Shown piece by piece: positions 7,608 through 62,656 of a DNA stretch of 64,000 nucleotides. The DNA lies in the IMG/VR virus record IMGVR_UViG_3300030430_004034, positions 23,959 to 87,958 of that record. The stretch is one strand, 5' to 3'. This DNA is from a virus. Each line of letters opens with the position of its first letter. Positions within the stretch are counted from its first letter, which is position 1. The notes under the pieces are model-generated. The model saw nothing but the letters and a program-made list of their open reading frames with translations. It was not told the DNA's origin and made no database searches. Position numbers and translations under genes: made by a program.

Positions 7608-7622
7608 AAATCTATTTTTCAC

Positions 7623-9450: not shown

Positions 9451-9499
9451 TGTGGCGAGTTGATGGGGACTTTTGCTCCGATTTTTGAGAGGGTTAAAA

Positions 9500-11174: not shown

Positions 11175-11176
11175 AA

Positions 11177-12706: not shown

Positions 12707-12714
12707 GTGAGAGC

Positions 12715-37900: not shown

Positions 37901-38306
37901 TTATTTCTGTGATTTTTGCAAAATGGTGTTGCAATAAATCATCTGAATGTAAAAGAACGAAGTAGTCGTATGTTTGATTAGAGAGTGGTGAAATGCCGTC
38001 AAGTTGTAGTCCGGTTTGAGAGTTTTCATCCCAACAATGAATCGTATATCCTTCCGTGTTGCTTAAATTGGAATACTCCGTTCCTGCTGAATCACTACCC
38101 TGTAGTTGCTGAACAAAGTTTTGGCTATGAGAGCCGTCTGTTGAAATGTAGGCATAAAGTCTCGGATTGGATGGCGAAGAACCAGCGTTGCTAACGAACA
38201 GAGGGTTAGTAGGACAGTCAAAATTGACATTGTTCGTAGCGTCATTGATTGTTGTGACAATCGTGGGATTCGGGGAAGTCCCTTTACGCATAGCGAATAC
38301 TGCCAT
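31992..38306 (-). CDS. Giant tail-tip / hub protein
   Basis: 2104 aa, beta-rich; hub-like C-terminus (NEIIVYG...SI..IG...LRAGDTI...ILEMEH...LELG). Confidence 0.65.
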   Translation of the reverse strand: MAVFAMRKGTSPNPTIVTTINDATNNVNFDCPTNPLFVSNAGSSPSNPRLYAYISTDGSHSQNFVQQLQGSDSAGTEYSNLSNTEGYTIHCWDENSQTGLQLDGISPLSNQTYDYFVLLHSDDLLQHHFAKITEIKQDEVSGDRFDFEPRLGKQIPKDTKFMVFRGPLKTETSIVALSIGIKNENITSGSSTYKYDKSYTCARPLFYFYSERLDKENELDHNTKYFIKYIDATPATTITPNINNAFVTTTDFSKRIIDYSKYTMKAVLVDKLRDLDDPTENAITSSEGFTLPSNDFTDYSKCFFNARRDANDVYDQTDASTLALTGPSRYAHYSFSPEKANTNFTLADFNVFESVGSKGGYAEVKLIDTQRILPSKIKKDDLLRIRHRLHSANLSEFFPLKATISSQSGTNFVFNTEYDLSTLLAEGDEVKIADRIYIIASTGSAIGSFSSNQQTIVMTTSTRLESSNIFAATSLTGITNSGDRLFRRAWSQSKGNLLTTFKIIENRHHNVKVIFNDLVEASVSSSNATTKTLSLSFDDSLYESESSIGFIEGAYSIEIERFEGTIEQINTEREFGQNFMKLFGRSTYSKLISPIITKNFLHSKDMIYSSHSPHKLGVFCGTSNTVLFSSNTLTLASVASAPEVGDEIFVYYSNLNFSYAGRVQAYNSSTKVVTLEGKSLATTGKLTLGSSVAHTTFNIYKTNTKPYVFNKALTSNNRLEETTTSLVGASEKGIFFESGLDLSDNSSLIKTSKSTDDKAIGYHLHNVSNIDKDNDFQAELSDGASSPSLANFNTVNSLIDFTVVSQSTKDGKTLIELAPYIPVSLGRLDFNDADSTDLDLELVGQTVGTVTTASERRYIEVTSFGNSPSEGDPIYIRPSISDEGVFVGYITQITKPSTSTNYRIYVDRVVSHGASERVERLDDFSPLSGQNYQEKYTQDLYLVNGEHLHGGKFVSLLHPLFTSNDLPATFNTYTAQRSQSTTTTERYGTPQYRIMHLEKGVFDFTSLAITDIALKFGNFYEGGSKIKYYASCYKVNPIKHFTSSIYYDGTIGRKFTFSNSNHLPIEMRGNFPAGGSLFFDYNVYESGHTKPVIVDVHPPTISEEVKKSKYVSKDYLEQFDAKSRRLFLFSTSDLTPYSKRRTDSLLSTSVLTDKEDLKKYKVMLLTAPVEGATSENQSKYSSNGSAIKYTDENYIDCSISEVDKNPASLKAGAIMRLTEVVFDFAFNQFNPEKPPKKSRSIPSLIYQYHSIAAVTDSGGSNVSVSSYGSSNITLSASVTLSDNDLLVDANGKLIGVVNGNQTGSTITLDEDPIPTNSGSAYTGVLHKATTKKTTIKGHGEKDSFLRFEEGITFHKGTIHNDTYRPESSPFTIFGHALDSPAGTTTHTNSFSNLILPISFNDNDRIGNNISGHPSRLLKKIDALTDNTNSSPDDGFKDSLTGFIFDRYNIESGNRGGFQLSKGTVFPNNDNTHLRKYSNNITTLNMGLSRQFMTHDGPSGGSRTATSSDGEGVFMGFKARIELDTSQSNITREDNVGPGNKSIYFYRITNSEILDFISDLTGCYLVSEAGLEYETGTATGASGSVGGINNTMPNKIGYVLSHEIETDNTTLTHIIQVDSDLTNGFYRVMQPNETTFYDFTPNRIKLNVMSSEYTKVAYENKTYDGMRDYSLAYGTGGRDSPISTNAGNNEAVLSMYVVVDPDKQDSNVTQEKDEVVARNHFFAFTTFNEFPFRNEVDFSACISDGINTHKSPINMKILGTNLGSYLEIGEMKEKHGVVSISETFTITTPQNITNTAKRAMIGSVVNISHEADDIVNDLLESNDIEHEIPDSTYPLFLAPNFKSVDLFSAVNYVLNRKDRDLIFEDSSFKVKESDDADLHPSLFISDRNQKIQIKDFKKSSGLFDFYNEIIVYGASHVSEKRNLRSIQRIGKKTLEVEDPSIFTQEDVDEKAIELLRLHSKLNEKVSVELGHSGLSQLRAGDTISLELVQENVPKNEYQILEMEHRIDGFVKLELGRFSKGMEDRFAELLISTNANRANLRSKELSRPNENASLLDLVSLRERKLMVQKRESSATTNKIGFVRTIGFSAPLSTGTITTTTVREVDF

Positions 38307-40161: not shown

Positions 40162-41568
40162 TCACCCTAATGTTCCTCTAGAAGAAGTTGTTCTGTTCAC
40201 TTCTTTGTTTATCATACTGCCAATCTTGGATGCAATCTGTCTTAATTCAGTATCAGAAGCACCAATTCTTCCTTGAACATTGACGGTAATGTTGTTGGTT
40301 GAACCCGACATTATCTTCTTACTGTCTCTGTTTGAATGCACTCTAGAACCAGTAGGTAACTTAACGATTTCCGGACCCCTTTCTCCAACTAGTTGCAATC
40401 CAGAACCGACGACACCTCCATTAGCAAAGGGATTTAATTTTGCCAAAAGAAGCCCTATTGCGGCAACAACAACGCCCCCTATGGCGATAGGCAAAGCGAC
40501 AAGAAGAGTGGATACTGTGGTTGCAAAAACCATGATGAGACCAATTATTGTAGTGATGGTCCCAATAAGTAAAAAAAGAACGGCTATGCCTTCAAAGTTT
40601 CTTTCTACAAATTGTGCGCCTCTTGCCTTTATTTCGGCTAATGTCTTATCCAATTTTAAACCCAAAACTCCAACAACAAATGCTATTCCTGCCCCAACAG
40701 TTGCCACTAGAACTCCAAATAATCCTGTTAATATGCCTCCTGCTATGGAAAGCAAACCCGAAAAAACTAATTTGAAATTTTCATAAAGAGAGCCTCCCCC
40801 TGTTATGGCTCTAGAAATCAAAGAGAGTCCCTTTTTTATGAAACCAAATGCGGTTCTGAATATTTTAAAAGCAACCTTTAACGCAACTAAAATATTAAAT
40901 ATGCCTTTTTGGAAGTTTTTACTCCTGAAAAATGCGATAAGAAGAGGTATGAGAAGACTGCCGATGAAAATATATTTCAACAACACAGCGGCCACGGCTC
41001 CTATATTCTTGAGAATCCCTCTGAAGCCTATTCTTGACCTCTCTTCTCCTTCTCTTTGGCTTCTTTTGAAAAAGTTTCTTGCGCTTTTGATTAAATCTCC
41101 GCCCATGAAGTTTCCGAAAGCCTTCACTCTAGAAATTTTATTTCCTTCTGCATCAACTCCTGAGATAATCTCTTTGGCTTTGGCGAAATTTTTAGCAAAG
41201 TTTCTTCCCGCACTTAGTAGTAGGCCTCCAGCGGAAGGGTCCTTGATTTTATCAATGAATTTCCCTATTGCTAAGGTGCTTATCTCTACAGCATTTTTCA
41301 CTCGGAAAAACATTGGAATAAATGCGTATCCAAATTTCAAAATCGGCTGTATGTTTACCCCAAACACTTTACCTTCGGGACTACCTAAAGCCCTACCGAA
41401 TCTAGTGAATGCATTCGCTGTCTCTTCTGCTTGGTCGCCTATGTCTTCCATGGCCTCACCCACTTCTGTTTGCGCTTGAATAAGGGGGCGCATTTCAGAA
41501 GTAAGATTTCTCATTACCCTTGTTAGATTTTGAATGGCCGCAGTTTGACGCTGTATCTCATCGGCCAT
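40162..41568 (-). CDS. Tape measure protein
   Basis: Helical and hydrophobic; C-terminal FANGGVV...LVGERGPEIV.LP.GS.V; follows the tail chaperones. Confidence 0.85.
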   Translation of the reverse strand: MADEIQRQTAAIQNLTRVMRNLTSEMRPLIQAQTEVGEAMEDIGDQAEETANAFTRFGRALGSPEGKVFGVNIQPILKFGYAFIPMFFRVKNAVEISTLAIGKFIDKIKDPSAGGLLLSAGRNFAKNFAKAKEIISGVDAEGNKISRVKAFGNFMGGDLIKSARNFFKRSQREGEERSRIGFRGILKNIGAVAAVLLKYIFIGSLLIPLLIAFFRSKNFQKGIFNILVALKVAFKIFRTAFGFIKKGLSLISRAITGGGSLYENFKLVFSGLLSIAGGILTGLFGVLVATVGAGIAFVVGVLGLKLDKTLAEIKARGAQFVERNFEGIAVLFLLIGTITTIIGLIMVFATTVSTLLVALPIAIGGVVVAAIGLLLAKLNPFANGGVVGSGLQLVGERGPEIVKLPTGSRVHSNRDSKKIMSGSTNNITVNVQGRIGASDTELRQIASKIGSMINKEVNRTTSSRGTLG

Positions 41569-44853: not shown

Positions 44854-45061
44854 GGAACATCCCCTCAATCTTCTTCTGTATTTCTTTGCTAACATGTTCG
44901 GCGTAAGCCATTTCAGCATTCTCAATCATTTCTTCATTTGAAAAGGAAACATCAAAACCTAGCAATCTAGATAACTCAATCATTTGGATATTTCTTTTCT
45001 TCTCTCTTTCTAGAAACCTATTGAAAATATCGGTGGCTTCTCGGAATGACATATCAATCAA
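44846..45061 (-). CDS. Hypothetical neck-region protein
   Basis: Operon-embedded. Confidence 0.5.
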   Translation of the reverse strand: MIDMSFREATDIFNRFLEREKKRNIQMIELSRLLGFDVSFSNEEMIENAEMAYAEHVSKEIQKKIEGMFRG

Positions 45062-46178
45062 TTAGATATAGGAGGTCTTTCTTTCCATCAAGTATTTCCA
45101 TAGCCTCTTTGCGAAGAATATCATATTTCTCTTTTGTAGAAATGTTTCCTCCAGTTTCGGCAATCAGAATCGTTTGGTCGTCATGTCTCAGTATTTCTGC
45201 CGCCGCTAATTTTGTAGCGGCTTCGTGAATGGCAGAAGGCACTCTTCCGTCGCCAGCGACATAATTTACAATCACTGAGTTTTTGTTGTGATAAGGATAC
45301 CTCTTTAGGAAAAAGATTCTACCATCATCGCCCATCATCCAAAAATCCCCTAAACGCTTCATGTCCTGTTTATCGGTGAAACCCTCAACGATGGTGTTAG
45401 AGTTTTCACCGGCTTGGTCAGAAACGGTAATTTGACAATCGGAACCATCCTCTCCTTCCAATAGGCTAGAGATGTGTATTTTTGTGCCGTCGTTGTGGTC
45501 AGTGTAAGCGTAGAAAAAATCAGAAATGTTCAGAGAGTTTGGTGAAGAAGTCAATGCCTTTTCAGAAGTTGCTCCTGTGAATTGTGCTGTCTTTGAAGGA
45601 AATTGTTCATTGATAAGTGCGACGATTTCCTTTGCTGTCGTTTTAGCACCAAAAGTAGAATTGAATCGTGATGAGGCAACAACTGGAGTATCCGCATGGG
45701 CGTGATATTTCAATTCAAAAACATCGCCTGAATTTGGAAGTTGTATTGAAATCTTGTTGATTTTAGTATAGGCGCTACTGTCCAAAGTTATGCTGGCCTG
45801 AGCAGAAGCCAATTCTCTGTAGTTGGTTCCTTCCCAAACTTGGAGACTCACAATCTTCCTAACCTTCATTTGGTGGAGTTGAACGAACCCTACATATCCA
45901 CCATAATACGAATGTATTGGGTGTCTTGAAAACTCAAAATCCTTAAACTCGTCTTTGTGGATAATAGGGCGATAAGAACGACCCACCTTATCATCAATCA
46001 TTCCTTCTACCCTTTTTATGATGCTACCTATTTGGGCGTGTGTAGGGTTGGTTAAAGAGGTAAACTCCGGTATTTGCAAAAGGTCGGATACAGCACCCTT
46101 GTTCGTATAGAATCCCTTTCCTTGGGTGTAGTCAACATCAATTTCTGTGTAATCGCTTGGTGATGATGAGACAGGCAT
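45054..46178 (-). CDS. Head-tail adaptor/connector with an insertion
   Basis: YT....V.DLL...I.R.E..ID...GR and VNYVAG...VPSAIHEAA, typical adaptor motifs. Confidence 0.7.
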   Translation of the reverse strand: MPVSSSPSDYTEIDVDYTQGKGFYTNKGAVSDLLQIPEFTSLTNPTHAQIGSIIKRVEGMIDDKVGRSYRPIIHKDEFKDFEFSRHPIHSYYGGYVGFVQLHQMKVRKIVSLQVWEGTNYRELASAQASITLDSSAYTKINKISIQLPNSGDVFELKYHAHADTPVVASSRFNSTFGAKTTAKEIVALINEQFPSKTAQFTGATSEKALTSSPNSLNISDFFYAYTDHNDGTKIHISSLLEGEDGSDCQITVSDQAGENSNTIVEGFTDKQDMKRLGDFWMMGDDGRIFFLKRYPYHNKNSVIVNYVAGDGRVPSAIHEAATKLAAAEILRHDDQTILIAETGGNISTKEKYDILRKEAMEILDGKKDLLYLID

Positions 46179-46180
46179 GA

Positions 46181-47599
46181 CTAGTCCTCCAATGCTTCTT
46201 CTAACTCGTAAGTGTTTGCAAGAAGATTCTGTAAGAAATTTGTTGCTTCATCCCTTGAAGCATTCACTTGTTCTGTAAATGCTCCTGTTTTTGACCCCTC
46301 TTCCTGTTCTGCAATCTCTGCTAAACTTGCTCCTTCTGAAACTTCTGTGCTAACGGTAAAGTATTCAGGGATGTTTCTTGAGACTCTTTTTTCTCTAGCG
46401 AACCCCCCTCTTCCTTCTGTTCTAACAGGGACTCTTGTGAATCTTAGTTCGCCAGTCCTGATAACTTCAACTCTAGCAGTGATTTCATCAAACGAAAATT
46501 CTTCCTTCCTCAACTCGTTTTTGTAAGGGTCAAGAATAATTTCATCAGGCAGAATAACTTTCACATCAGCCAATATTTTGAAATCCGATAGAGCACCAAT
46601 TATTCTTCTTCTCCTGTTCCCTGCGTCTCTAGGGAAGAGACAGTGCATCAATAATTTAAACGCTGTATTCTTGTCTATGTTTTTGAGAGAAAGAATTACT
46701 CTACCTTCACTTACAACAGATACTCTTTCTTCCCCAACCTTCACACTTGTTTTTTGCTGTGAAGCATCAAACTCTACATCGTACAAATCCATTAAATTAA
46801 ATCCGTTAATATCGTCTCTTAATTTTTCATCTAATCCGTATATTTTGAGAAATGTTTTGCCTTTGGGGTCTTCCGCTCTACGCCACGCTGTAGGAGATAA
46901 TGAAGACCCTTCTTTGCCAGTTATTTTCTCCATCAAAACAACATCTTCCTTGAAAATATCGTCCTTTTTTGTTCTAGGATAATCTACTCTAAATAGCGAA
47001 CTGGGCTTGTAATCTGCTAGAACCTGTTCAGTAAACGATTTCTTTTCATCGTCTCCAAATGAAATTATCAAATTACCTCGGCCTGTCGTTACTTCCATGT
47101 TCTTTTTCATTGTGTCAATAAGAGTTTTGAACGGGTATTCTTCAGATTCTTCTTCCAATATTTCTTCCATATTTTCGATGATAATATCAGAATCTTCTCC
47201 CGTTTCAGTCAATTTTTCGTACTCTTCCGTTTCCTCTCCTCTACCGAGAATCGTAGCAAAGGTATTAGGATTTTTTAAATCATCAATGGTAAAGTCCATT
47301 TTTGTAAAGTCAATCAACTTACCTTTGAATTTCTTGATAGTGTTCAACTTGCTAATCTTGGTAGATGTTATTCCTGATAACTTATTTTTGATTATTTTCT
47401 TAGCCTCATCAACATTTTCTTCATATGCCCCGAGTCTATTTATTCGCTCTAAATCTTCAATTTTTTCATCAAGAAGTTGGTCCTCTGTATTGCTACCTTC
47501 TTCTAGAAATCCGTAAGCCAAGTTTCTCAAAATAATGGCTTGTCCTAAAGTCTCAACATCCGTCACTTCTTCACGGCTAAACAGTAGAACCTTTACCAT
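46181..47599 (-). CDS. Acidic hypothetical protein
   Basis: 472-aa ORF with no recognisable motif. Confidence 0.55.
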   Translation of the reverse strand: MVKVLLFSREEVTDVETLGQAIILRNLAYGFLEEGSNTEDQLLDEKIEDLERINRLGAYEENVDEAKKIIKNKLSGITSTKISKLNTIKKFKGKLIDFTKMDFTIDDLKNPNTFATILGRGEETEEYEKLTETGEDSDIIIENMEEILEEESEEYPFKTLIDTMKKNMEVTTGRGNLIISFGDDEKKSFTEQVLADYKPSSLFRVDYPRTKKDDIFKEDVVLMEKITGKEGSSLSPTAWRRAEDPKGKTFLKIYGLDEKLRDDINGFNLMDLYDVEFDASQQKTSVKVGEERVSVVSEGRVILSLKNIDKNTAFKLLMHCLFPRDAGNRRRRIIGALSDFKILADVKVILPDEIILDPYKNELRKEEFSFDEITARVEVIRTGELRFTRVPVRTEGRGGFAREKRVSRNIPEYFTVSTEVSEGASLAEIAEQEEGSKTGAFTEQVNASRDEATNFLQNLLANTYELEEALED

Positions 47600-47609
47600 T
47601 TATACCAAC

Positions 47610-48287
47610 TCACATCAACCATTTACCCCAAGCCGCCGCTTTTTGTATCGCAGAGCCTAGGTGAAGACCGCTTGATGGGGGTTCGTAACTTGTTTGTCCA
47701 GTGTTCGGGTCAACCCAATATGGCCTTCCGTATCCGTCAGTACCGCTAGGGGGGACTGGATAGCCACTGCCATTGTTTACTGCTCCCTGCATCTGTTGGT
47801 ATTGCTGAGTATGTCCAGTCACTCCGGCAATAGCCATACCTGCTGTCGGCTGGGCAGGCGCACCCCCTCCCATATTAGAAGAGAATCCTTGAGATTCAAG
47901 GTATTGCTGTTTTGCCATTTTTCTTTGCATAACTACCTCAGTATCAATTGCTGAGTTCACAATAGCATTAATGTCCAACTGTATGTTTTCTTTTGTAATC
48001 CTTTCGTACTCTCTGAGACAATCAGGATGAACAGTCATTTTGCCAGTGGTAGAGTCCTGAACAAACTCTAGTTTAGAAAGCATTTCGCTAACCACTCGCT
48101 CGGTGACATCTTCCATCAACTTTTCAAAAGTCATTAAAAATTTATGACCATGATATTGGAAAAACTCCTCCACATGGTTGTCTTGTAGAGAAAGCAAATT
48201 GTTTACAGTTTTGAATTGTGTGTCCTGAGAGGCGCTGATTGCACCTACAATGTCTCTATTGTTTGGGCCAAAAACCATTTCACTCAC
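47610..48287 (-). CDS. Hypothetical protein with a Q/G/P-rich region and C-terminal amphipathic helix
   Basis: Ends LGSAIQKAAAWGKWLM; in the GTPase cluster. Confidence 0.6.
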   Translation of the reverse strand: MSEMVFGPNNRDIVGAISASQDTQFKTVNNLLSLQDNHVEEFFQYHGHKFLMTFEKLMEDVTERVVSEMLSKLEFVQDSTTGKMTVHPDCLREYERITKENIQLDINAIVNSAIDTEVVMQRKMAKQQYLESQGFSSNMGGGAPAQPTAGMAIAGVTGHTQQYQQMQGAVNNGSGYPVPPSGTDGYGRPYWVDPNTGQTSYEPPSSGLHLGSAIQKAAAWGKWLM

Positions 48288-48921
48288 CCTTTCCTTGTAT
48301 CAAAAACTCCATTCTTTCCATTGATGCTCTTACTTCTTGTGCCAACCTAACGACTTCTTCTGGAGCAGTTTCTTCTGTTTCTACACGAGGAGATTTGATT
48401 ATCCATCCAGCACTTGTAAGAGAAATAATATCGTCCCTTGTCAATGTGGTGGCTGGCCCTTTAGATAAGACTTGTGGCAATCTAGGTTTTGGAATAAACG
48501 CCTTGAATTCCAGCCCGTGGTCTTCTGCCATGATTTGTTGTTGTAGCATTTCCATTTGTCGGTGAAAACCTGCATGTTTTGGGCAATAGGTTCCTCGCAT
48601 TGGTCTACCTTTTTCTACATGAGTTAATGGAATAGGTGGTCGCATGTAGTCTCCTGCTTCCCAAATATGGTGGGTTCCACAAACAACACAACGCTCTTTC
48701 AGATTAAATTTCCACCCGTAATTTACAAACAAAAACTTCTTCTTTTCTGCCATCAAAACCTTTCTAATTTCTTTCAACCTTTTCTTTGGTTTGAGCGTTC
48801 GATATTTGTATTCCTCTACCGGGCCACTTGCTCTTGCTTGAACAAGAGGTGGTAGGAACGGGTTGCTCGTCTGTGCTGATTGTGCGCCTATCAAGTTTGG
48901 TTGTTGATACATTTCTTTCAC
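48280..48921 (-). CDS. Zn-finger protein with a C-terminal coiled coil
   Basis: CVVCG...YCPKH. Confidence 0.6.
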   Translation of the reverse strand: MKEMYQQPNLIGAQSAQTSNPFLPPLVQARASGPVEEYKYRTLKPKKRLKEIRKVLMAEKKKFLFVNYGWKFNLKERCVVCGTHHIWEAGDYMRPPIPLTHVEKGRPMRGTYCPKHAGFHRQMEMLQQQIMAEDHGLEFKAFIPKPRLPQVLSKGPATTLTRDDIISLTSAGWIIKSPRVETEETAPEEVVRLAQEVRASMERMEFLIQGKGE

Positions 48922-49584
48922 CTAGTAATCCTTAATCATCGTAGTGACTCCACGGTAAACCATTTCCGGTTGGGACTTAGCCGATACTATGTATTTGAAT
49001 GTCGGTATCCCTCGTTCATTTAGTTTTTGCATACCATAATGGAAGGGGTCAAAAATAGGATGTTTGTTGATGTCTCCATCGTGTTTGTATTTTTCTCCCC
49101 ACATGTCGTACTTGTTTGCCCAAATACTGATTGCCAAGGGGTATTCTTCGTCTCTTTTCTTTTTTCCATTAGGCCACCTTGAAAGACAGATAGCATCAAC
49201 GAGAAACTTCCATGCCAGTTGATGGTCTAAGTTGGCTGGGTTGTCCAAATGCCTGTGGTCTATCATGAAGATAATGTATTTTACCCGTCTATTTTTCATG
49301 TCCTTAATCCATTCTTTCCAATAGATGGACTCTCCGCCAATGTCAGCAGAGCGTAGGGTATGGACTTCTCCTTCAAACTTGATTCTTTTTCGGGTGGCCC
49401 TATGCACTCCAACCGTTCGTTCTTTGATTTGTGCAACTTCTCCCCTTGTCCTTAACTGATGTCCGAGAGTGGTTTTTCCAACCATTGTAGCCCCGTAAAC
49501 TCCGAAATTGATTGCATGAATTTTTTTGTAGAAACCAATAATTGCTTCACCGACAAGGATAGCAAAGCCTGTCATTAGCGACAT
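48922..49584 (-). CDS. Ras-superfamily small GTPase (Arf/Sar-like)
   Basis: G1 GATMVGKT, G2 RT, G3 DIGG, IIFMID, G4 NKYD, G5 SAK; hydrophobic N-terminal helix. Confidence 0.85.
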   Translation of the reverse strand: MSLMTGFAILVGEAIIGFYKKIHAINFGVYGATMVGKTTLGHQLRTRGEVAQIKERTVGVHRATRKRIKFEGEVHTLRSADIGGESIYWKEWIKDMKNRRVKYIIFMIDHRHLDNPANLDHQLAWKFLVDAICLSRWPNGKKKRDEEYPLAISIWANKYDMWGEKYKHDGDINKHPIFDPFHYGMQKLNERGIPTFKYIVSAKSQPEMVYRGVTTMIKDY

Positions 49585-49596
49585 TCATTTAACCAC

Positions 49597-50100
49597 CTAA
49601 AAATATTTATCTAATATTTTCTTTAAATGTTCTTGGACTCTTAAATCATCGAATCTTAACATCGCTGAATCTCTCAATGCCTCTATTACTTCGGTTTTTC
49701 TATTGTCATATTCTAAATCACGCAGTAATTTTTTTCCTAATTCCTTAACTCTTGAATCGGGTAAATATTTGTATTCTAAATTAAAATATGCTGGTCTTCC
49801 TCTTGGAGTAGAGCCTTTTTTTCTACTAATCCACCCATAGTCACTATCGTAGGTCAAAAACATTTTTTCTTTTGTAGGGATTGTTTGTTTTATCATTGGC
49901 TTAGAAATGTCTTTTAATTCATCTGCTCTTGAGCCAAAAAACGCATAAACCAATGCTTCTGTTAATCTTGGTGTCCAATATCCTGTGTCCTCATCACCTT
50001 GGGAACCTTGAAATAATCTATTAAATTTCCAAGAATAATCTTTGCCGTATTCTTCATCTGTTTGAATAATATATGGTTTTTTTAAGATGTTCCACCACAT
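49597..50100 (-). CDS. WxxILK-leader protein, possible ADP-ribosyltransferase-like fold
   Basis: Starts MWWNILKK; RLFQG...GYWTP...ALVYA. Confidence 0.45.
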   Translation of the reverse strand: MWWNILKKPYIIQTDEEYGKDYSWKFNRLFQGSQGDEDTGYWTPRLTEALVYAFFGSRADELKDISKPMIKQTIPTKEKMFLTYDSDYGWISRKKGSTPRGRPAYFNLEYKYLPDSRVKELGKKLLRDLEYDNRKTEVIEALRDSAMLRFDDLRVQEHLKKILDKYF

Positions 50101-50101
50101 A

Positions 50102-50317
50102 TCAATGCCCCCACCCGTTTAACAAAGTGTCAAACAGGAAACCCATAACATTCATGTCAAAAACACCCATGATGTTTCCAACAAGGAAACCGGAAAGACA
50201 GGCACAAAAGCCCCAAAACCACGCTCTCATTTTCAAAAAGAAAATGTCAGCAGAATGTGCTCTTTGTTGATTGTAGGCGTAATCCGAATCGGAAAAGCCC
50301 ATTATGTCTCCAAGCAT
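50102..50317 (-). CDS. Small membrane protein
   Basis: Hydrophobic stretch AWFWGFCACLSGFLVGNIMGVF. Confidence 0.65.
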   Translation of the reverse strand: MLGDIMGFSDSDYAYNQQRAHSADIFFLKMRAWFWGFCACLSGFLVGNIMGVFDMNVMGFLFDTLLNGWGH

Positions 50318-50328
50318 GTAGCCTCACC

Positions 50329-50727
50329 TCATTGGAGTTGGGCTAAAAATTCTGCTCCTAATTCATTTTCTTCTTGGTAAGATGAAATTTCTGGAATTCT
50401 AGTGGTATTGAAATCCGTTTGGAAAGTCTTCAAGGAGTCTTGCATTCTCTTTCTTTGCTGTTCTTCCTTGTTTTTCATTTTCCAATAGGATTCAATTCTT
50501 CGGTCAAGAAGTCCTTGTTCTATGTAGTCGTTAAGGAACAAGTCATTGAGAGCCTTCATGATGAGAATAGCACCGACGGTAATCAGTCCGAATAGAACAC
50601 CGTGGGCTAAATGAGTGTATGGAAACTGCGTACCAAACTCAGCATAAAAGAAAACATTTGCTCCGCTCACCACCCCAACAAAAAGGATGGTCATAATCAG
50701 CCTTGTATCTGCGTTAAGAGCCGCCAA
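50329..50727 (-). CDS. Two-TM membrane protein with a C-terminal coiled coil
   Basis: Two hydrophobic helices followed by a charged helix; start codon uncertain. Confidence 0.65.
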   Translation of the reverse strand: MAALNADTRLIMTILFVGVVSGANVFFYAEFGTQFPYTHLAHGVLFGLITVGAILIMKALNDLFLNDYIEQGLLDRRIESYWKMKNKEEQQRKRMQDSLKTFQTDFNTTRIPEISSYQEENELGAEFLAQLQ

Positions 50728-51818: not shown

Positions 51819-53150
51819 TCAAGCGACATTGGTGATTTTACCTTGGCCCAAGAAGAAGGAACAGCCCGTCTCCGCAATCGTGCGGTAAAGGGCTTGGTTT
51901 CCAAGACGACCCACACCGAATGGGTTTCCGTTGCTGATACCGTCCTCAAAGTATTGGGTTGGCTTCATCACTTGGAGCCACAGATGGTCCGTATCAAGGA
52001 ACAGAAGGTCGCTGATACCCGTATCAGAAGAATTGGTAGTAGAAGTCATTTCCTTCACAGGGATGAGAGGAATGTCGTAGTAGGTTGCCACACGGAAACC
52101 AACTTCTGCACCCTTGATACCTCGGACACCGTTTACGGTAGGAATAACTTCCTTTCGGTCCATGAATCGCTCTTGCGACTGGAGCAAGTCAGCGATTGTC
52201 TGAATGGTATCGTATCCCGTAAGAATGACTTTAGGAGAACCACCAGCAACACGAAGTCTGCGAATCATGTCGTTAATCAAAGTCAAGGTAAGAGGTCGGA
52301 CAGAACTGGATGCGTAAGAACCACCAAAGTCCACCTCTGCGTCAAGGAAAGAAGCAGAGTTTCTGTTGTCTCCAAAGATTTTACCAAGGTTGTTTGATGC
52401 GCTCAAAGTGTCCGTAGCAAGAACGCCACCATCTAGTGCGGCCAATTCTGCGTTGCTCGTAACAATCTTCAACAGCGAGGTGTAGTTTCTCTCAATGTCT
52501 CCAAGAGCCGAGGCTTCACCGTAGAATTCAAGAGGCATAACCAGCATCTTGTTCTGTGCTTCTGCGTGAGCCTTACCCATATCTTCACGGATAATAGCAC
52601 GGATGTCTCCCAGTCCATCGTCAATCTGTGCCATTTCCATAGCAAGTTCGGAAATGTCAAACTGATGAGCAATCGTCTTTGGACTCATGAAGAGTTGAGC
52701 GTAGGTTGGAGCCATGCTACCGAGACCATCAGCCGCAGTAGAAAGGCCAGCGTTCTCAGGAACGCCACCGATTTCGTCGGCTTGTGGCGAATCGTCACCG
52801 ATACCGCCGCCGCTACCGTCGCTCTGCAAAGACAGAGTGGAACCGCTACCACCAAATGGTCGGCTCTTGAGGATTCTCCAACCGCTGGAGTTGTAAGGTC
52901 GCTTTGACAGAATAGCCAAGGCGTTTACTTCACGGTTGAGCATTGACCAAACTTTCTGTCCGTAAAGAACATTGTAGAGGCCAGTAGTGGTTCCGATACC
53001 GGAAACCCCACTTGCCCCTGCGTCGGCAATATCGTGAGCCGTATGTAGGCCCTGAACGACACCCGCTTGCTTAAGCAAGGAGTTTCCGCCGAAGTTTGGT
53101 AGTCCGTAAGTTGATGCTTCTAAGTCTCTAATCGTGTTAATGTATCCCAT
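51819..53150 (-). CDS. Major capsid protein (HK97 fold)
   Basis: Follows protease/scaffold; 443 aa; HK97-type pattern (PKTIAH...SEL, PKVILTG, YYDIPLI, LFLDT). Confidence 0.85.
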   Translation of the reverse strand: MGYINTIRDLEASTYGLPNFGGNSLLKQAGVVQGLHTAHDIADAGASGVSGIGTTTGLYNVLYGQKVWSMLNREVNALAILSKRPYNSSGWRILKSRPFGGSGSTLSLQSDGSGGGIGDDSPQADEIGGVPENAGLSTAADGLGSMAPTYAQLFMSPKTIAHQFDISELAMEMAQIDDGLGDIRAIIREDMGKAHAEAQNKMLVMPLEFYGEASALGDIERNYTSLLKIVTSNAELAALDGGVLATDTLSASNNLGKIFGDNRNSASFLDAEVDFGGSYASSSVRPLTLTLINDMIRRLRVAGGSPKVILTGYDTIQTIADLLQSQERFMDRKEVIPTVNGVRGIKGAEVGFRVATYYDIPLIPVKEMTSTTNSSDTGISDLLFLDTDHLWLQVMKPTQYFEDGISNGNPFGVGRLGNQALYRTIAETGCSFFLGQGKITNVA

Positions 53151-54402: not shown

Positions 54403-56904
54403 CTATTTAACGCTATCCGTATTATCGCCCAATTTTATCGTTCTATACTTATCTTCATAAATATTCCAAAGGCCATCATCTGTGTCCTTATCTACAGGTT
54501 TTTGTTCGTATCCTGTAAACGCAATCCAAACTTTTTCTCCTTCGTAATCAACTACACGGAAATGCAACTTTGTTTCAAACTTGTTACCGTTGAGGATATA
54601 TTCGTGGTATCCATGTCGTTGGACACCAATAGTGACATCCCCCTCATCTATCAACTGATGTGTATCCTGTTGTTCGGATATTTCAGCAGGGTACTTTACA
54701 GCCTTACCAAAGAGTGCGAAAATATCATCATCAGTTTCTAAATCAATGGTCCACATGAGCAATTCGTCTTTGTAGTTTACAGAAAAGTTGAGGTTTCCGT
54801 CCTTACGAAGATAAACTTTGAATTGTGCTTGGCTTTTTTGTAAGACTGAATCATCAATAGTAATTTCATTGTTTGATACATTGATGTATTCACTAGCATT
54901 CAAGAAATTGCTAAACGATTCCTTGTCTTCAAATAAATTATCGAACTCTTTCGGGTAATTTCTTACGAGGTATTCTTGTAATTCCTTAACTTTGGTTTTC
55001 TTCCCTCTGTCCATATTATCTTTGGCAAATCGGATTGTAGCAGACCGAATCTGACTCTGATAAGTCTTCATCGTTTTCTCTGCTTCTTGTTTCCACATAT
55101 CTAAATCATTGAGAGCGTTCTTTGCCATGAGGTTGTTTTCTTTGAAACCGTAAAGGACGAACCCGTCCATACTCTTGGCAATAATTGTAGCCTCTCCATG
55201 AATGCCATCAGTAATTGTAATTCCTTTCTCCAAAGAAAGAGCCTTGTATTTTACGCTGGGTTTTGTGTCTTGGGATAACATTTGTAGCGTGACTATTTTA
55301 TCAGGAAGAATCGCTTCGGGAACCTCAATAACTTTTGCAGAGTAAAGAGAATACCTTCCATTGTCTTCTTTAACCTCATCCACCTTTACACGAATGATGT
55401 CTCCAACACCAACCTTGATTTTTGTATTGAGAGCCTTACCCACATTCATGTATTTACGACCGTTCATTTCTACGATAAACTTCCCTTCTTGTTCCTCGTC
55501 TACCGGACCAGCCCCTAAAGTGTAGGAGTAAAGCCCTGACTTTGTAGATTTTTTATCCAGAACCAACATGTCCAAATCAACAAACTTCTTCCATTTCACC
55601 CACTTTGGATTCTTTTTTGTTCCAATAAAATAAGTAGATTCAATGTCCTTAATGACCACGCCTTCGGCTGTAGGCATGTCCATGATTTCTTTTGCGTATT
55701 CGTCAATGTCTTTCAATGAATCTGCAATTCTCGTATCTTTCTTGGAAGGGAAGAATAGATTTCCAGATGATTTAGCAGAGTAATTGTTGAACAAGAGATT
55801 TATTCTGTCTCTCAAAGGTTCCTCTGTCATGTTTCTAGATTCGTGTCGCATAATGTCAAAGACATGGGCTTTCAATTCCATGTCTTGGTACTTGTCTTTG
55901 AAAACATGGGCCACTGTATCTGCTCTATGTAGTGCCTTGTCGCCGTCAAAAAGAATCAATTCAGCATCTAAAATACAGTCTCCGTATGATTTTTTCTTCA
56001 ACTCTTCAACTTGTTCTTTGCATTTCTCGGTGATGTCCTTTTCATTGTAGGAAAACACTTGGACTCTTCCATCAATTTTGTGTAATTGTATTCTCATGCC
56101 ATCGTATTTTTCTTGGACGACATACTCTCCACTGAAACCTTTCAATTCATTCATGTCCTCAATATCAAAAATCCGATACATTGGCTTATTGGGCACGATA
56201 AATTGAGTGATTGCTTTTTCTTCCTCGGACTTTTCGGCTTTTTCTAAATCTACCTCTTGTAATTCTTCAAGAGTTTCTTCAGATGAATTTTCAAGCATGA
56301 TGTCTTCTAGAATATCATTTGCTCTGTTGAATTGTGCTTCCACCTTTTTGGAATCCTTTCCATCACCATAATGCTCAATGATATACAAAGGAACATCATC
56401 AACTTCCAAATCCATTCCTTCTAATCCATCTGTAATTCCATCTTCTTTCAAATCCTTAGAAGAATAGAATTTTCGGGGTAAAGCCTTGTTGTCGGAGCGG
56501 ATAGCATAATGAATAAATTTCACCATTGTTCCGACATCAGAAAGAAGTGCTTCCAAAACATCCCCCTTGAAAGCGTCTGCGAAGGGGTCTGTGACTTCTT
56601 CGGATTCAAAGCGCATGTCCTTGATTCCTTCGTAGATAATTCTAGCCGTGTTGCTTTCAGGGTCTTTTGCGTTGTTATCCTCAATGTGTTTCTCATCTAC
56701 GAACCTCTTGATTTCTTTACCAAGAGGGGATAGGGCATCAAACGCTTCTTTGATTTCTTCAAGAGCGTTTCTCCAACGCCCCCCGTACTCTTTCTTGTCC
56801 TCTCTAGCAGAGAGGTAGGCCACCCTTGTTTTTTCAAAAAGCGCAAGGATTTCGTCGGAAACAGGCGCTTTGACCTTTCCAAACATGAGGCCAGTTGAGG
56901 GCAT
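54403..56904 (-). CDS. Second ATP-dependent ligase, multidomain, in the head module
   Basis: EKYDGMR, LDAE, VFD, EGVVIK, WVKWK and an OB domain; extra N- and C-terminal domains; start MPSTG. Confidence 0.85.
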   Translation of the reverse strand: MPSTGLMFGKVKAPVSDEILALFEKTRVAYLSAREDKKEYGGRWRNALEEIKEAFDALSPLGKEIKRFVDEKHIEDNNAKDPESNTARIIYEGIKDMRFESEEVTDPFADAFKGDVLEALLSDVGTMVKFIHYAIRSDNKALPRKFYSSKDLKEDGITDGLEGMDLEVDDVPLYIIEHYGDGKDSKKVEAQFNRANDILEDIMLENSSEETLEELQEVDLEKAEKSEEEKAITQFIVPNKPMYRIFDIEDMNELKGFSGEYVVQEKYDGMRIQLHKIDGRVQVFSYNEKDITEKCKEQVEELKKKSYGDCILDAELILFDGDKALHRADTVAHVFKDKYQDMELKAHVFDIMRHESRNMTEEPLRDRINLLFNNYSAKSSGNLFFPSKKDTRIADSLKDIDEYAKEIMDMPTAEGVVIKDIESTYFIGTKKNPKWVKWKKFVDLDMLVLDKKSTKSGLYSYTLGAGPVDEEQEGKFIVEMNGRKYMNVGKALNTKIKVGVGDIIRVKVDEVKEDNGRYSLYSAKVIEVPEAILPDKIVTLQMLSQDTKPSVKYKALSLEKGITITDGIHGEATIIAKSMDGFVLYGFKENNLMAKNALNDLDMWKQEAEKTMKTYQSQIRSATIRFAKDNMDRGKKTKVKELQEYLVRNYPKEFDNLFEDKESFSNFLNASEYINVSNNEITIDDSVLQKSQAQFKVYLRKDGNLNFSVNYKDELLMWTIDLETDDDIFALFGKAVKYPAEISEQQDTHQLIDEGDVTIGVQRHGYHEYILNGNKFETKLHFRVVDYEGEKVWIAFTGYEQKPVDKDTDDGLWNIYEDKYRTIKLGDNTDSVK

Positions 56905-56912
56905 GTAAATCC

Positions 56913-57176
56913 TCAACCTTGTGTTTCTTCACCAGCCGAACCGTATCCTGAATGTGTCCCAGTGCTGTTCTCAATTTTTGTCTTGTCTTTATCCCCGGTC
57001 TTTTTGGGACGCTTAACTTTGACTTCTTCCCCGAGGGAGTCGTATGCGATTCTCTCTCTGTTCTCTGGAACCTCACGATAACTTTCTTTCTTTTGAATCA
57101 ATTCTTTTACAATTCTCAACTGGCTGATTGCTTGTGCAATTACGGTTTCTTCTTTGGTCATTTTTTCAGGCATGTG
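56913..57176 (-). CDS. Hypothetical head-module protein
   Basis: Start MPEK after AAGGTGA. Confidence 0.5.
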   Translation of the reverse strand, partial: HMPEKMTKEETVIAQAISQLRIVKELIQKKESYREVPENRERIAYDSLGEEVKVKRPKKTGDKDKTKIENSTGTHSGYGSAGEETQG

Positions 57177-57177: not shown

Positions 57178-57402
57178 TCACCTTCCGCTAACAAATTTTT
57201 CTATGTCGTCCCATGACATTTTATGAATGGTATCGCCCGTGGGCATAACAGAGTTGGTCATGGATGGAGTAGGAGATTCAGCGACAACAAACCCTGATTT
57301 CATCAAAAGGTTGTCTTGATGATAAACTGTTTTTTCAAGAGACTGAATTCGCTCAACAAGTGCCTTTAGAACACCCAACATTTCTTCTTCTGTTTCACTC
57401 AC
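57178..57402 (-). CDS. Hypothetical scaffold-like peptide
   Basis: C-terminus IHKMSWDDIEKF resembles the scaffold C-terminus VADMSWSDIHKM. Confidence 0.55.
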   Translation of the reverse strand: MSETEEEMLGVLKALVERIQSLEKTVYHQDNLLMKSGFVVAESPTPSMTNSVMPTGDTIHKMSWDDIEKFVSGR

Positions 57403-57745
57403 TTCTCAAGTCCCCCTTTCTTTTTGGATAAACGATTTCACGAAGTTGTCGGTAAAGCAATTCGTATTCCTTACGGAGTTTGCTAGATAAGGCCAACATA
57501 TCAATGTTCCTTTCATCTATGGATTTGAAACGCTTAACCATTTTTTCATCAGACTTAATGAGTTCCAACTCCTTAAGCATGTCAATTAATTCGCCAAGTT
57601 GCGTAAAGTCTTGTCCAAAATATTCAGTTGGTTCAGCCGTCTGTAGCGTTTTCTTAACTCGCTTTCTTTTCTTTTCGTCCAGAGATTCAAGAATAGGACT
57701 ATTCTCTTTCTCTATCTTTTCTTCTTTGAGTATTAATTCCCACAT
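57395..57745 (-). CDS. WxxILK-leader coiled-coil protein
   Basis: Start MWELILK at 57745 after GGAGG. Confidence 0.6.
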   Translation of the reverse strand: MWELILKEEKIEKENSPILESLDEKKRKRVKKTLQTAEPTEYFGQDFTQLGELIDMLKELELIKSDEKMVKRFKSIDERNIDMLALSSKLRKEYELLYRQLREIVYPKRKGDLRSE

Positions 57746-57746
57746 A

Positions 57747-59390
57747 TCATTCTTCCTCCTCTTTGGCTTCCCTTCTTTCACGCATTTCTTCTACGGTAAT
57801 AAAATCCCCTGCTCTTTCTTGTTCGATTCTTTCTGCTTCTTCTTCTGAGACTACTCTACTTTCTCCAGTTTCAGCATCAATAATACGAGTCATTCCTTGT
57901 GGAATATTTCTTCTGTCTCTTTCTGAAATTGCTCTTTCCGCACCAAAACCTAAAGGCCTACTTTCTTTGATTCTAGCAATCCTTCTTCTCCTCTCATCTC
58001 TGAATTTTCTTTGGAGTTTTTTATCCGCTCCAATGTCCAAAATCTGGCCGGTCATTGAACGATAAACATCTCTCAAAGTTTGAAGAAGAGTTTTTTCTTC
58101 TTCTTCTGTATTCAACAAGTCATGTATGTCTTGTCCCAAATCGCCTAATTCTTTGTACCTCTCCATGTCTTCTCCGGGTTTTTTGGGCCTATTGTATCGG
58201 TTCGCACGGACCTTCTTTTCAACAACAGAAAGAGGAGCCAAGAATTTTTCATTTCTTGGAACGCCGACATAAAATACGGATTGCGGGCTTCTTGCTATTT
58301 TTTTGAGTTCAGAAAAAGTATTCTTTGCAGGATTACCCTTACCTAAAACCTCAAGAATCATCAAATCTTCGTCTCTTGACCTTTCTAATCTTTCAAGCAT
58401 TTTTTTGATGTCCTTTAATTTTGTAAGGGTCTTCGGCGTAATTTTCACTCCTTCGGGTTCTTCAAATTCTTGAAGCCTTTCGGTGATTGGGCTTATTTGA
58501 GATTCTAAACCATCTGTATTCCTATTATTTTTCTTTAATTCCCTAGAAATAGAAATTAATACTTTTCGGAGATTACGCAAAGAATCTACATCTCTGTTTC
58601 CCATTCCGGAGAGTATGTTTCCTGCAAGAGAAACATTGTCTTGTAATTCATCTGTAATCGTAGCCATTTCTTCCTGTTGTTCAGGAGTTATTGCACCCTC
58701 TCTTTCAAACAATTCAGACATCAATGCCGATTTTAACTCATTCACTAATTTTTCATAACTAAAATTGTCGAAATTTCTTGACTCCCCAAAAGGTTCATTG
58801 ATGAATTCTTCTATGTTTTTTGCTCTAGGTTTTTCCCGACCTATTTCCTGAACGACTTCTTTTATTTCTTCCGGGTCCGTTTCTTCTGCTGTTTGAAATC
58901 TAGCCAAATCTGCCTTTTCTTGTTTGATGGCTTCGTTCAGAACTTGAAGGAGAGAGCCTGTTTTTCTTTCTACAGTGTAGGATAACTTGTCTCCATAAAG
59001 ACCAGTTTCAGTAACTAATTCCGAAGAGAACATCATTGGCTTCAATAATTCTCTAGATGTTCTCGGAAGATTGTTTACGACATACTCTTCTGCTTGGTCT
59101 TTAATTTCCTTAGCGGAAGAATTCAAGTCTGCAAAAAACCCTAAAACAGAAACAGAATCCTTCTTATCATCTTCTTCTGCTGTTTTATTTTTTTCTTTTT
59201 GCTCTTTAATGGCACTTTTTATTTTATTTTGCGTCTCAGAAATTGCAGTGCTGACAGTCCCCTTTGCCTCTTCTAAGGCCTGAATATTTTTTTCCGTGGA
59301 ATCAATGATTGCTTCTTTTGCTTCAGGAGAAAGCCTAGGAACATCCCTAGGTCGTCGTTGGACTTTCTCCAAAATCAAAAAAATCACCAC
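57747..59390 (-). CDS. Large charged helical protein (possible internal head protein)
   Basis: 547 aa, E/K/R-rich, located between portal and protease. Confidence 0.55.
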   Translation of the reverse strand: MVIFLILEKVQRRPRDVPRLSPEAKEAIIDSTEKNIQALEEAKGTVSTAISETQNKIKSAIKEQKEKNKTAEEDDKKDSVSVLGFFADLNSSAKEIKDQAEEYVVNNLPRTSRELLKPMMFSSELVTETGLYGDKLSYTVERKTGSLLQVLNEAIKQEKADLARFQTAEETDPEEIKEVVQEIGREKPRAKNIEEFINEPFGESRNFDNFSYEKLVNELKSALMSELFEREGAITPEQQEEMATITDELQDNVSLAGNILSGMGNRDVDSLRNLRKVLISISRELKKNNRNTDGLESQISPITERLQEFEEPEGVKITPKTLTKLKDIKKMLERLERSRDEDLMILEVLGKGNPAKNTFSELKKIARSPQSVFYVGVPRNEKFLAPLSVVEKKVRANRYNRPKKPGEDMERYKELGDLGQDIHDLLNTEEEEKTLLQTLRDVYRSMTGQILDIGADKKLQRKFRDERRRRIARIKESRPLGFGAERAISERDRRNIPQGMTRIIDAETGESRVVSEEEAERIEQERAGDFITVEEMRERREAKEEEE

Positions 59391-61294: not shown

Positions 61295-61648
61295 TCACGA
61301 ACCCTTTCGCCATTTTTTGTTCTTCTTTTCTTTGGTCTTACTTGGACTCCACTTTTCTTTATTAGCCCAATAAGCGGCAGACATTTTTCCACGCTTGATG
61401 TTCTTTGCATGGCGTGATTTGAAGGCTTCCCGTTGTCCGGCAGTTTGATTTGTCCTGACTCCTTTCTGTCCAAACTTAATGTATTTGGCTTTGTTGTTCT
61501 CAAAAGCCATAACATGGTGAGATTTGCCGGAATCGTCGTTTAACCTTTGAGCCTGATTGAGTCCTTTAAGTCCCTTTTTCTTGGCCCTCTCTAAAGCCTT
61601 TGACCTTACGCTCTTTGGCTTCTTCTTGAGAATTTGTTGCCAACTCAT
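61295..61648 (-). CDS. Basic WxxILK-leader protein
   Basis: MSWQQILKK; FGQKG...AFKSRH...AAYWA...W domain. Confidence 0.7.
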   Translation of the reverse strand: MSWQQILKKKPKSVRSKALERAKKKGLKGLNQAQRLNDDSGKSHHVMAFENNKAKYIKFGQKGVRTNQTAGQREAFKSRHAKNIKRGKMSAAYWANKEKWSPSKTKEKKNKKWRKGS

Positions 61649-62076
61649 GCTCTCATCCTCCGGTAATACGCTTCCTCTTCATTAACGGTAAGTGGCCTGC
61701 CTTCTTCCCTTTTGATGTCGTTAAGTGTAGGTTTTCCTTTACCTTGATTTCTATACATTTCAAAGTAGTTATCAACAACTGTTCTTGCGGGGATTTGTCT
61801 TTTTGGTTTAGGAGTAGGTTTTGGTTTAGGGGTGGATGCGGGTTTAGGTCCCGCATACAAAGTATATGCTTCCGATTCGGGAATATATCGGGAAGTAGGT
61901 TTTTCCCCTTGCCATTTATTTCTAGCATATCTTTGTTTCTGCGCCGAACCCATGTAATATGCACTACGGGGTTTAAATGCCTTTTTTCTTTTTTTGTCCC
62001 TCTTACTAGGGTTATTGAACCAATCACGAAGACTATCTCTTTTGAGAATGTCTCTCCAACTCATGCTCTCATCCTC
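61640..62076. repeat. 21-nt direct repeats at gene junctions (61640-61660 and 62056-62076)
   Basis: CCAACTCATGCTCTCATCCTC twice, each preceded by TTGAGAAT; a related copy at about 63031-63053. Confidence 0.9.
61645..62064 (-). CDS. Basic WxxILK-leader protein
   Basis: MSWRDILKR; PK-repeat linker. Confidence 0.7.
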   Translation of the reverse strand: MSWRDILKRDSLRDWFNNPSKRDKKRKKAFKPRSAYYMGSAQKQRYARNKWQGEKPTSRYIPESEAYTLYAGPKPASTPKPKPTPKPKRQIPARTVVDNYFEMYRNQGKGKPTLNDIKREEGRPLTVNEEEAYYRRMRA

Positions 62077-62543: not shown

Positions 62544-62656
62544 CTTTTCATTTGTTTGCTACGACAATGCGCCCTACAAGTGAACCCCTTCGTTTTATTT
62601 GGACCGCTACAGACACAATACGACATGTCTCTTTTGAGAACATTTTTCCAACTCAT
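62540..62656 (-). CDS. 38-aa WxxVLK-leader Cys-rich peptide (not in ORF track)
   Basis: MSWKNVLKRDMSYCVCSGPNKTKGFTCRAHCRSKQMKR; translationally coupled at both ends. Confidence 0.7.
   Translation of the reverse strand: MSWKNVLKRDMSYCVCSGPNKTKGFTCRAHCRSKQMKR

Follow-up and report, generated by a model that had tools for sequence, protein, structure and literature searches.

A conserved five-gene cassette around a divergent Arf-branch GTPase in magroviruses, a candidate membrane switch for virion release

How do tailed archaeal viruses leave the cells in which they have multiplied? Their egress machinery has been described as completely uncharacterised (PMC10791045), and the locus considered here raises the question in a concrete form. 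It lies in the virus record IMGVR_UViG_3300030430_004034 (87,958 nt, with a completeness of 96%), of which a stretch of 64,000 nucleotides, positions 23959-87958, was analysed; this whole stretch will be called the window. At window positions 47610-50727, on the minus strand, there is a cassette of five genes, encoding a protein with two transmembrane (TM) segments, a small protein with a single TM segment, a small GTPase, a Cys/His (zinc-type) protein and a protein rich in glutamine (Q-rich). This cassette is a conserved, virus-specific unit of magroviruses built around a divergent GTPase of the Arf branch. The reading of its function that we favour, tentatively and while stopping short of calling it probable, is that of a late, membrane-tethered GTP switch, most likely serving virion release.

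The source genome is that of a magrovirus, one of the tailed viruses that infect Marine Group II archaea, as indicated by its gene content and by the presence of a homologue of the window GTPase in the Poseidoniales virus YSH_150918. Apart from its virion genes (portal, S78 prohead protease, HK97-type capsid protein, tail-tube-like protein, tape measure), it codes for a thermosome-type chaperonin, two ATP-dependent ligases and a family-B DNA polymerase that is split.

At the centre of the cassette stands a 220-aa protein (48922-49584, minus strand), with a Shine-Dalgarno (SD) sequence, AGGTGG, upstream of its ATG. An earlier note on this DNA, made from the letters alone, had described it as a GTPase with all five G motifs, and these are intact, in order and invariant in 21 relatives (G1 GATMVGKT, G2 T57, G3 DIGGE, G4 NKYD and G5 SAK); the string DIGG...W...IIFMID, which had been quoted in the same note, is present as well. 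Residues G31, G36, K37, D81, G84, D109, N157 and K158 are invariant over 22 GTPase sequences, down to 21% identity. The AlphaFold2 model of the protein, built from a diverse alignment, reached a predicted local distance difference test (pLDDT) score of 88.6 (a model from a shallow alignment gave only 67), and displays the canonical order of six strands and five helices, with a helix at residues 2-22. This succession of G1 to G5 on the canonical fold is that of a Ras-superfamily small GTPase (TRAFAC class). When the model was compared with the PDB by Foldseek, 1391 matches were obtained at E <= 1e-3, and all of the approximately 45 listed were small GTPases or G-alpha proteins. The number of homologues (388, at 68-96% identity), together with the confidently predicted small-GTPase fold, puts this identification far beyond chance.

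Regarding the branch to which the GTPase belongs, the profile of the family, compared with the PDB, matched best an Asgard ArfR (8OUN, E 5.7e-11), followed by Arl3 chains (profile positions 26-221), whereas the matches to Ras were restricted to the N-terminal half. The entry 8OUN is cited in a preprint (bioRxiv 10.1101/2024.02.28.582541) on crystal structures of two Asgard ArfR proteins, HodArfR1 and GerdArfR1. In the Foldseek comparison, the highest target-normalised TM-scores (a measure of fold similarity) were those of Arf6 (0.78), Arf3 (0.76) and Arl3 (0.75), with Arf1 also among the top matches, at an identity to solved Arfs of about 15-19%. Moreover, 6 of the 22 family members match the Pfam family Arf directly (best E 1.9e-15). 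Taking these three lines together, the GTPase can be placed on the Arf/Arl/Sar branch, as a very divergent and not as a regular member, and the Arf/Ras-like affiliation proposed in the earlier note holds in the sense that this branch is the nearest by both profile and fold. The distance is evident in the searches made with the window protein itself: it has no match to PF00025 (Arf) at E <= 1 in the Pfam scan, its best Pfam matches, MMR_HSR1 (19.6 bits, with a cut-off of 21.9), Roc and SRPRB, are all below the cut-off, the NCBIfam scan returned only a sub-threshold match to small_GTP, and a single-sequence phmmer search against the PDB gave nothing meaningful. A profile search of 1.84 billion protein representatives retrieved 75 matches, including full-length relatives at 21-36% identity.

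Several traits distinguish this protein from the Arf family in its usual form. The catalytic glutamine of DxGGQ is replaced in the lineage of the window (lineage 1), where the motif is DIGGE, with an invariant E85; DIGGQ is found in a second lineage, described below, and DIGGH or DxPGx in other relatives. The Gly2 myristoylation site is absent, and there are two family-specific insertions, one of them a basic loop (NGKKKR) that precedes strand beta-5. The sequence at the N-terminus, MSLMTGFAILVGEAIIGFYKK, is hydrophobic, and within the helix that it is predicted to form, residues G6, F7, A8, E13 and A14 are invariant in 21 relatives. This helix could either lie in the plane of the membrane, as in Arf, or serve as an anchor, as in SR-beta. 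A search for longer GTPases with a fused domain gave none, which is weak evidence.

With respect to the Arf family itself (Arf1, Arf6, Arl3, Sar1, ArfR), the viral protein shares the small-GTPase fold, the helix before beta-1, the Trp after switch II and the double-Gly G3 motif (DxGGQ in lineage 2, DIGGE in the window), and it has in this family its best full-length profile and fold matches. The invariant D109, at the end of beta-4 in the IIFMID stretch, is one that we take to be like the VVD of Arf/Sar. In contrast, it carries Glu in place of the catalytic Gln, lacks Gly2, remains below the cut-off in Pfam at the low identity given above, bears the two insertions, and has an N-terminal helix that is more hydrophobic than amphipathic. 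Furthermore, its gene belongs to a tailed virus whose archaeal host is not an Asgard, and its partners are without counterpart among Arf guanine nucleotide exchange factors, GTPase-activating proteins (GAPs) or coats.

Is the cassette more than a chance grouping of genes? Eighty IMG/VR loci carrying a GTPase at least 75% identical to that of the window were collected, 40 of them with full flanks, and in all 40 the order of the five genes (2-TM, 1-TM, GTPase, Cys/His, Q-rich) is identical. No gene of the region is better conserved across these loci than that of the GTPase (mean identity 77%, versus 72% for the capsid protein); the 1-TM protein (71%), the Q-rich protein (70%) and the 2-TM protein (60%) are likewise present in every one of them. 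The cassette is under strong purifying selection.

The second lineage comprises 297 stretches that encode a relative of the GTPase, on contigs of up to 118 kb, and 50 of these loci were analysed. The lineage-2 GTPase has 240 aa and is about 34% identical to that of the window; outside it, the lineage-2 surroundings bear no resemblance to the window by tblastn. The architecture is nevertheless the same in the 50 loci, namely a TM and coiled-coil protein of about 185 aa, a TM protein of about 80 aa, the GTPase, a Cys/His protein of about 300 aa and a Q-rich protein of about 200 aa, except that the ~80-aa TM protein precedes the GTPase in 34 of the 50; an extra membrane protein of about 80 aa usually follows the Q-rich gene. 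When the proteins of the two lineages were compared profile against profile with hhalign, the GTPases matched each other with a probability of 99.3% (E 3.7e-20), the Cys/His proteins with 95.9% (E 5.6e-9) and the Q-rich proteins, over their helical domain, with 89.7% (E 1.9e-6), while every off-diagonal pair stayed below 16% and was not significant. By this comparison, the three soluble proteins are homologous between lineages. The lineage-2 viruses are also magroviruses, since their capsid protein is 44-46% identical to that of the window and the chaperonin is present.

In a complete lineage-2 genome of 106.9 kb (G001), about 22 kb separate the cassette from the capsid gene, as against about 1 kb in the window. 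Thus, the location between head and neck genes given in the earlier note is correct for the window and does not extend to lineage 2. The fact that the cassette has stayed intact while its genomic position and its neighbours changed argues for a functional, self-contained unit. The same order is found in a third variant (L163) and in CACGHY010000002.1 (L168), a 106-kb contig of the Poseidoniales single-cell genome AG-422-I20 that contains the full cassette and is probably a magrovirus inside an infected cell, which ties the viruses that carry the cassette to a Poseidoniales host. Conservation of the cluster had been set beforehand as a refuting test of the idea put forward in the earlier note, and it was found both in the 40 close relatives and in this distant lineage; the expected synteny across magroviruses and haloviruses is borne out for the former and fails for haloviruses and deposited phages.

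Outside magroviruses, both types of GTPase were searched by tblastn against 50,697 phage and archaeal virus records, with no match (near-identical records may be missing there), and the family profile retrieved no ordinary cellular small GTPase (E <= 1e-3) among the 1.84 billion representatives. In about 186,000 species genomes, scanned with the profile of subfamily A3 only and not with the rest of the GTPase family, relatives were found solely on short or virus-sized contigs of metagenome-assembled genomes (MAGs) and single-cell genomes. Among them are short contigs binned to Maricaulis and Parvibaculum MAGs (L164, L166, L167) and to a Promethearchaeati MAG (L165), and these bacterial and Asgard contigs are most simply regarded as mis-binned viral DNA. 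The most distant subfamilies, A4 and A5, yielded only one further magrovirus-like locus in the viral and genome collections, and two host-type genomes (each of about 1.2 Mb and incomplete) gave no Arf-family match. The family therefore looks virus-specific and restricted to magroviruses. Neither the cassette nor its GTPase is described in the searchable literature on magroviruses or Poseidoniales, the main magrovirus papers mentioning no GTPase; where egress of Poseidoniales viruses has been addressed at all, the proposal was made for holin-like genes of another order, the Adrikavirales.

In the window, the capsid gene (51819-53150) lies on one side of the cassette and the head-tail genes (45054-47599) on the other. 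The minus-strand ORFs of this interval are tightly packed, with gaps of 0-12 nt, each cassette gene has its own SD sequence, and the whole sits within the structural (late) operon, all of which points to late expression. The five genes listed in the earlier note are all found in place on this strand; a sixth ORF of 167 aa (49597-50100, minus strand) is not listed there. This ORF is regarded as a variable insert outside the core of the cassette, since just 5 of the 40 related loci carry it, and it has no family match in Pfam or PHROGs.

The first gene of the cassette (50329-50727, minus strand), defined by ORF and hydropathy, encodes a 132-aa protein with hydrophobic segments at residues 10-28 and 39-57, followed by a helical tail of 75 aa, 33% of it charged; two TM segments are predicted in 44 of 51 relatives. 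It matches no Pfam, PHROG, PADLOC or NCBIfam family. Its architecture resembles that of a class II holin, and it fits the description of holins given in PMC10791045, namely small proteins with TM domains and a charged C-terminal tail. The second gene (50102-50317, minus strand), recognised in the same way, encodes a 71-aa single-pass protein with its TM segment at residues 34-52 and K29 and R31 ahead of it, the single segment being predicted in 48 of 48 relatives.

Downstream of the GTPase, the Cys/His protein (48280-48921, minus strand) has 213 aa as an ORF, and the Q-rich protein (47610-48287, minus strand) has 225 aa. A GGTGA sequence precedes an ATG at 48912 in the former and at 48278 in the latter, each 9 nt inside its ORF; given this SD-type sequence ahead of both, these are the likely starts, leading to products of 210 and 222 aa, respectively. 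The Cys/His protein contains C78-x2-C81 and C113-x2-H116. Its conserved core is RC..(C)G ... GR.[ML]RGTYCP.H, the latter motif appearing in nearly all sequences, and K47, L56, C78, G82, G105, C113 and H116 are invariant in both lineages. The metagenome protein set holds 509 homologues, of which those listed are hypothetical proteins without a Pfam family. GPN-loop GTPase 3, retrieved as a possible relative when the profile was compared with the PDB (E 0.049), was rejected as a chance-level match. The Q-rich protein (11% Q, 10% G) consists of a helical domain of about 90 residues (~38-131) that the whole family has in common, a low-complexity region rich in Q, G and P, and, in lineage 1, a conserved Trp-rich helix at the C-terminus, GLxLGSAIQKxAAWxKWLM. 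At residues 183-204 it also carries a WW-like motif, GRPYWVDPNTGQTSYEPP, with a sub-cut-off match to Pfam WW (E 1.3e-4), which is kept in 8 of 8 aligned lineage-1 proteins and absent from lineage 2. Atlas look-ups of these two proteins gave no usable lead, and the cassette proteins found no family match in PHROGs, PADLOC or NCBIfam.

What, then, could such a set of proteins do? The combination of an Arf-branch GTPase with membrane proteins and soluble partners, its placement in the late operon and the purifying selection acting on it suggest a membrane-tethered switch. In the mechanism that we propose, the two small membrane proteins would be located in the cytoplasmic membrane of the host, with their charged tails in the cytoplasm, and the GTPase would be bound there as well, by its hydrophobic N-terminal helix together with its basic loop. 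In the GTP form, it would recruit or release the two soluble partners. The likeliest regulator would be the Cys/His protein, in a GAP-like role, because the Glu-for-Gln exchange in switch II suggests slow intrinsic hydrolysis, and the likeliest effector or scaffold would be the Q-rich protein with its terminal Trp-rich helix. The output would be a timed permeabilisation or rupture of the membrane of a host without a murein wall, leading to virion release, a process in which the 2-TM protein would act in the manner of a holin, with its triggering controlled by the GTP switch.

Two considerations favour a task in the interaction with the host over a morphogenetic one: only magroviruses have the cassette, although all tailed viruses share head and tail assembly, and the cassette is not tied to the head genes. 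As for egress in particular, it is favoured because the 2-TM protein fits the holin description and no other lysis candidate was recognised, and because phage lysis cassettes commonly lie inside late operons, those of P2 being placed between head and tail genes. In addition, the Glu-for-Gln switch II, with its fixed Zn-type neighbour, recalls the GTPase-GAP logic proposed for ArvA-ArvC of the haloarchaeal vesiculation system (PMC10927574). The absence of a holin/endolysin pair, pointed out in the earlier note, is confirmed for the proteins scanned. The sole other multi-TM late protein (40162-41568, minus strand), with 468 aa and five hydrophobic segments, was considered as a lysis candidate and ruled out as the tape measure, since it matches tape-measure PHROGs (phrog_1538, E 9.5e-9). 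The holin/antiholin cassettes cited in PMC10791045 (lambda S, P2 Y/LysA/LysB) are alike in their small proteins of one or two TM segments, their charged cytoplasmic C-terminal tail and their late operon. They are unlike the viral cassette in that the latter has no endolysin or spanin, and in that its three soluble proteins, the GTPase included, are without counterpart in them.

It has to be noted that several observations weigh against an egress switch. To our knowledge, no holin works with a GTPase, so the mechanism would be without precedent, and a position among late genes fits any late function equally. No holin family of Pfam or PHROGs was matched, no lytic or S-layer-degrading enzyme adjoins the cassette, and the genome contains further small TM ORFs, which might be the actual holins. 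Between the two lineages, the membrane proteins show no significant similarity by hhalign. The attachment of the GTPase to the membrane is itself a prediction, and the helix on which it would depend is ambiguous: it passes the TM threshold in 55 of 57 lineage-1 proteins as compared with 11 of 38 in lineage 2, and its hydrophobic moment (muH 0.37) is matched by 15% of shuffled sequences. Thus, for the Arf/Sar1-like N-terminal helix described in the earlier note, the hydrophobic character stands, whereas an amphipathic character of the Arf type finds no statistical support, its moment not rising above the shuffled controls. More generally, we infer membrane binding, partner binding, GTP hydrolysis and a lytic outcome from the sequences of the cassette. 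The complete version of the proposal, in which a holin-like protein gated by a viral Arf-type switch, with its own regulator and scaffold, is the long-sought means by which a major group of tailed archaeal viruses leaves the cell, must be considered doubtful, if possible.

The alternative that survives best, which we judge unlikely although deserving consideration, is a non-lytic remodelling of the membrane (vesicle budding, an assembly or replication platform, or a block to superinfection), with virion release left to other genes, for which the other small TM ORFs of the genome could provide holins. The action of Arf-branch GTPases and of the haloarchaeal ArvA on membranes is one of bending or vesiculation, without rupture (PMC10927574; bioRxiv 10.1101/2024.02.28.582541). 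In the ArvABC/OapABC system of Haloferax volcanii, a small GTPase with a Zn-ribbon partner drives vesiculation, which confirms the statement of the earlier note that a small GTPase takes part in haloarchaeal vesicle formation, and the Zn protein has been proposed as a GAP (PMC10927574). The layout of the viral genes, with a GTPase, a Zn-type protein and a third protein, parallels arvA-arvC-arvB, and the Q-rich low-complexity protein has the appearance of a scaffold. By description, both systems have a GTPase with a hydrophobic N-terminal helix beside a zinc-type protein and a third small protein; ArvABC acts on the cytoplasmic membrane.

The partner proteins of the two systems are, however, unrelated in sequence, with no PF09845, DUF2072 or DUF2073 match in the cassette, and the latter adds two integral membrane proteins and the Q-rich protein. 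The zinc-type protein is not a homologue of OapC/ArvC: PF09845 (OapC) was not detected anywhere in the 88-kb genome at E <= 0.01, although it was positive in three controls, the genomes of Methanocaldococcus jannaschii, Haloferax volcanii and Methanosarcina acetivorans, and over the cut-off in two of them. The OapC locus of an Asgard MAG has no adjoining GTPase, so it allowed no comparison with ArvA by that route. Besides this lack of homology to OapC/ArvC or to the DUF2073 protein, the virions of tailed viruses are free of membrane, superinfection exclusion and replication platforms, as functions that usually act early, would hardly be expected in the middle of a structural operon, and PADLOC found no defence-family match for six window proteins and two lineage-2 proteins.

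Considerably less probable is the proposal that these are virion-internal or ejection proteins, packaged in the particle and inserted into the host membrane at infection to form a channel for DNA entry, as in T7 and P22, with the GTPase acting as an assembly factor or an injected effector. In its support, the cassette of the window lies between head-accessory and head-tail connector genes, ejection proteins typically have hydrophobic segments and regions of low complexity, and the 167-aa gene inserted within the cassette is tagged with a leader and might be packaged cargo. This N-terminal leader, M(S)W.[DN]ILK, is common to 10 of the 127 genes called in the genome, the version of the insert being MWWNILKK, and may be a targeting or processing signal. 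The core proteins themselves were examined as leader-tagged cargo and ruled out, none of the five carrying the leader, which weighs against this proposal, as do the lineage-2 cassette, placed far from the capsid gene among unrelated genes, and the lack of any match to a PHROG structural family. We also know of no packaged GTPase in a tailed virus.

There remains the possibility that the viral GTPase mimics, or competes with, a membrane GTPase pathway of the host (division, envelope or S-layer biogenesis, or protein targeting), which would keep the cell in a condition that suits virion production. Among the viral structures of BFVD, the listed fold matches with a named source, 50 in all, come without exception from giant viruses and are GTP-binding proteins of the Ras/Rab or another type (2 more are unnamed). 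Although both groups are virus-encoded members of the Ras superfamily, those of giant viruses (Nucleocytoviricota) derive from their eukaryotic hosts, on whose trafficking they act, whereas that of magroviruses belongs to a prokaryotic tailed virus, has no detectable cellular source and comes with dedicated viral partners. Host takeover of this kind is the weakest of the explanations and appears quite improbable, for while it would agree with the GTPase being the most conserved gene of the region (as expected for a fit to a conserved host partner), with its weak SR-beta and MMR_HSR1 similarities and with giant viruses, the source of the only viral fold matches among those listed, carrying Rab/Ras GTPases for host manipulation, it is opposed by the lack of related GTPases beyond magrovirus-like contigs in the scan of species genomes with the A3 profile, of ordinary cellular small GTPases among the matches in the protein representatives and of Arf-family matches in the two incomplete host-type genomes, as well as by the four fixed viral partners, which suggest a self-sufficient machine, and by the placement in the late operon, which fits poorly.

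Some further observations concern the surroundings of the cassette. Insertions are tolerated in two places, one between the genes of the 1-TM protein and the GTPase, as in the window and in 5 of 40 loci, and the other between the GTPase and the Cys/His gene, where some close relatives (L003, L006, L065, L068) have about 400-560 bp extra, their GTPase ending at ~6660 and their Cys/His gene starting at ~7070-7220. The leader-bearing genes include, apart from the insert (49597-50100), those at 57395-57781, 61295-62064, 62656-63039 and 9473-9937, and four more upstream of the window (genome positions 7210-13262). In most lineage-2 magroviruses (L084-L160), a protein of about 2000 aa without a Pfam match lies directly upstream of the cassette, followed by a helix-turn-helix (HTH) protein of about 230 aa, beyond which nothing was recognised in the lineage-2 flanks with Pfam and PHROGs; the 2104-aa protein of the window (31992-38306) has no detectable similarity to any lineage-2 locus, flanks included. 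Finally, a second ATP-dependent DNA ligase domain is found in an 837-aa protein (54403-56916, minus strand), between the portal region and the prohead protease, besides the regular ATP-dependent DNA ligase at 11177-12706.

In the surface ocean, few viruses are as abundant as magroviruses (PMC5434244, PMC11706807), and the cassette provides a compact, strongly conserved candidate for the way in which tailed archaeal viruses exit the cell, open to synthesis and testing. If the egress reading is true, it would reveal a principle of lysis timing without counterpart in bacteriophages, and an Arf-like membrane switch in a non-Asgard archaeon. Should the function prove to be other than egress, the cassette would still represent a virus-specific membrane GTPase machine without a described counterpart. 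In sum, Arf-branch GTPases with candidate membrane-targeting helices are extended to viruses of Thermoplasmatota-type hosts, which bears on the debate over eukaryote-like membrane switches outside Asgard archaea.

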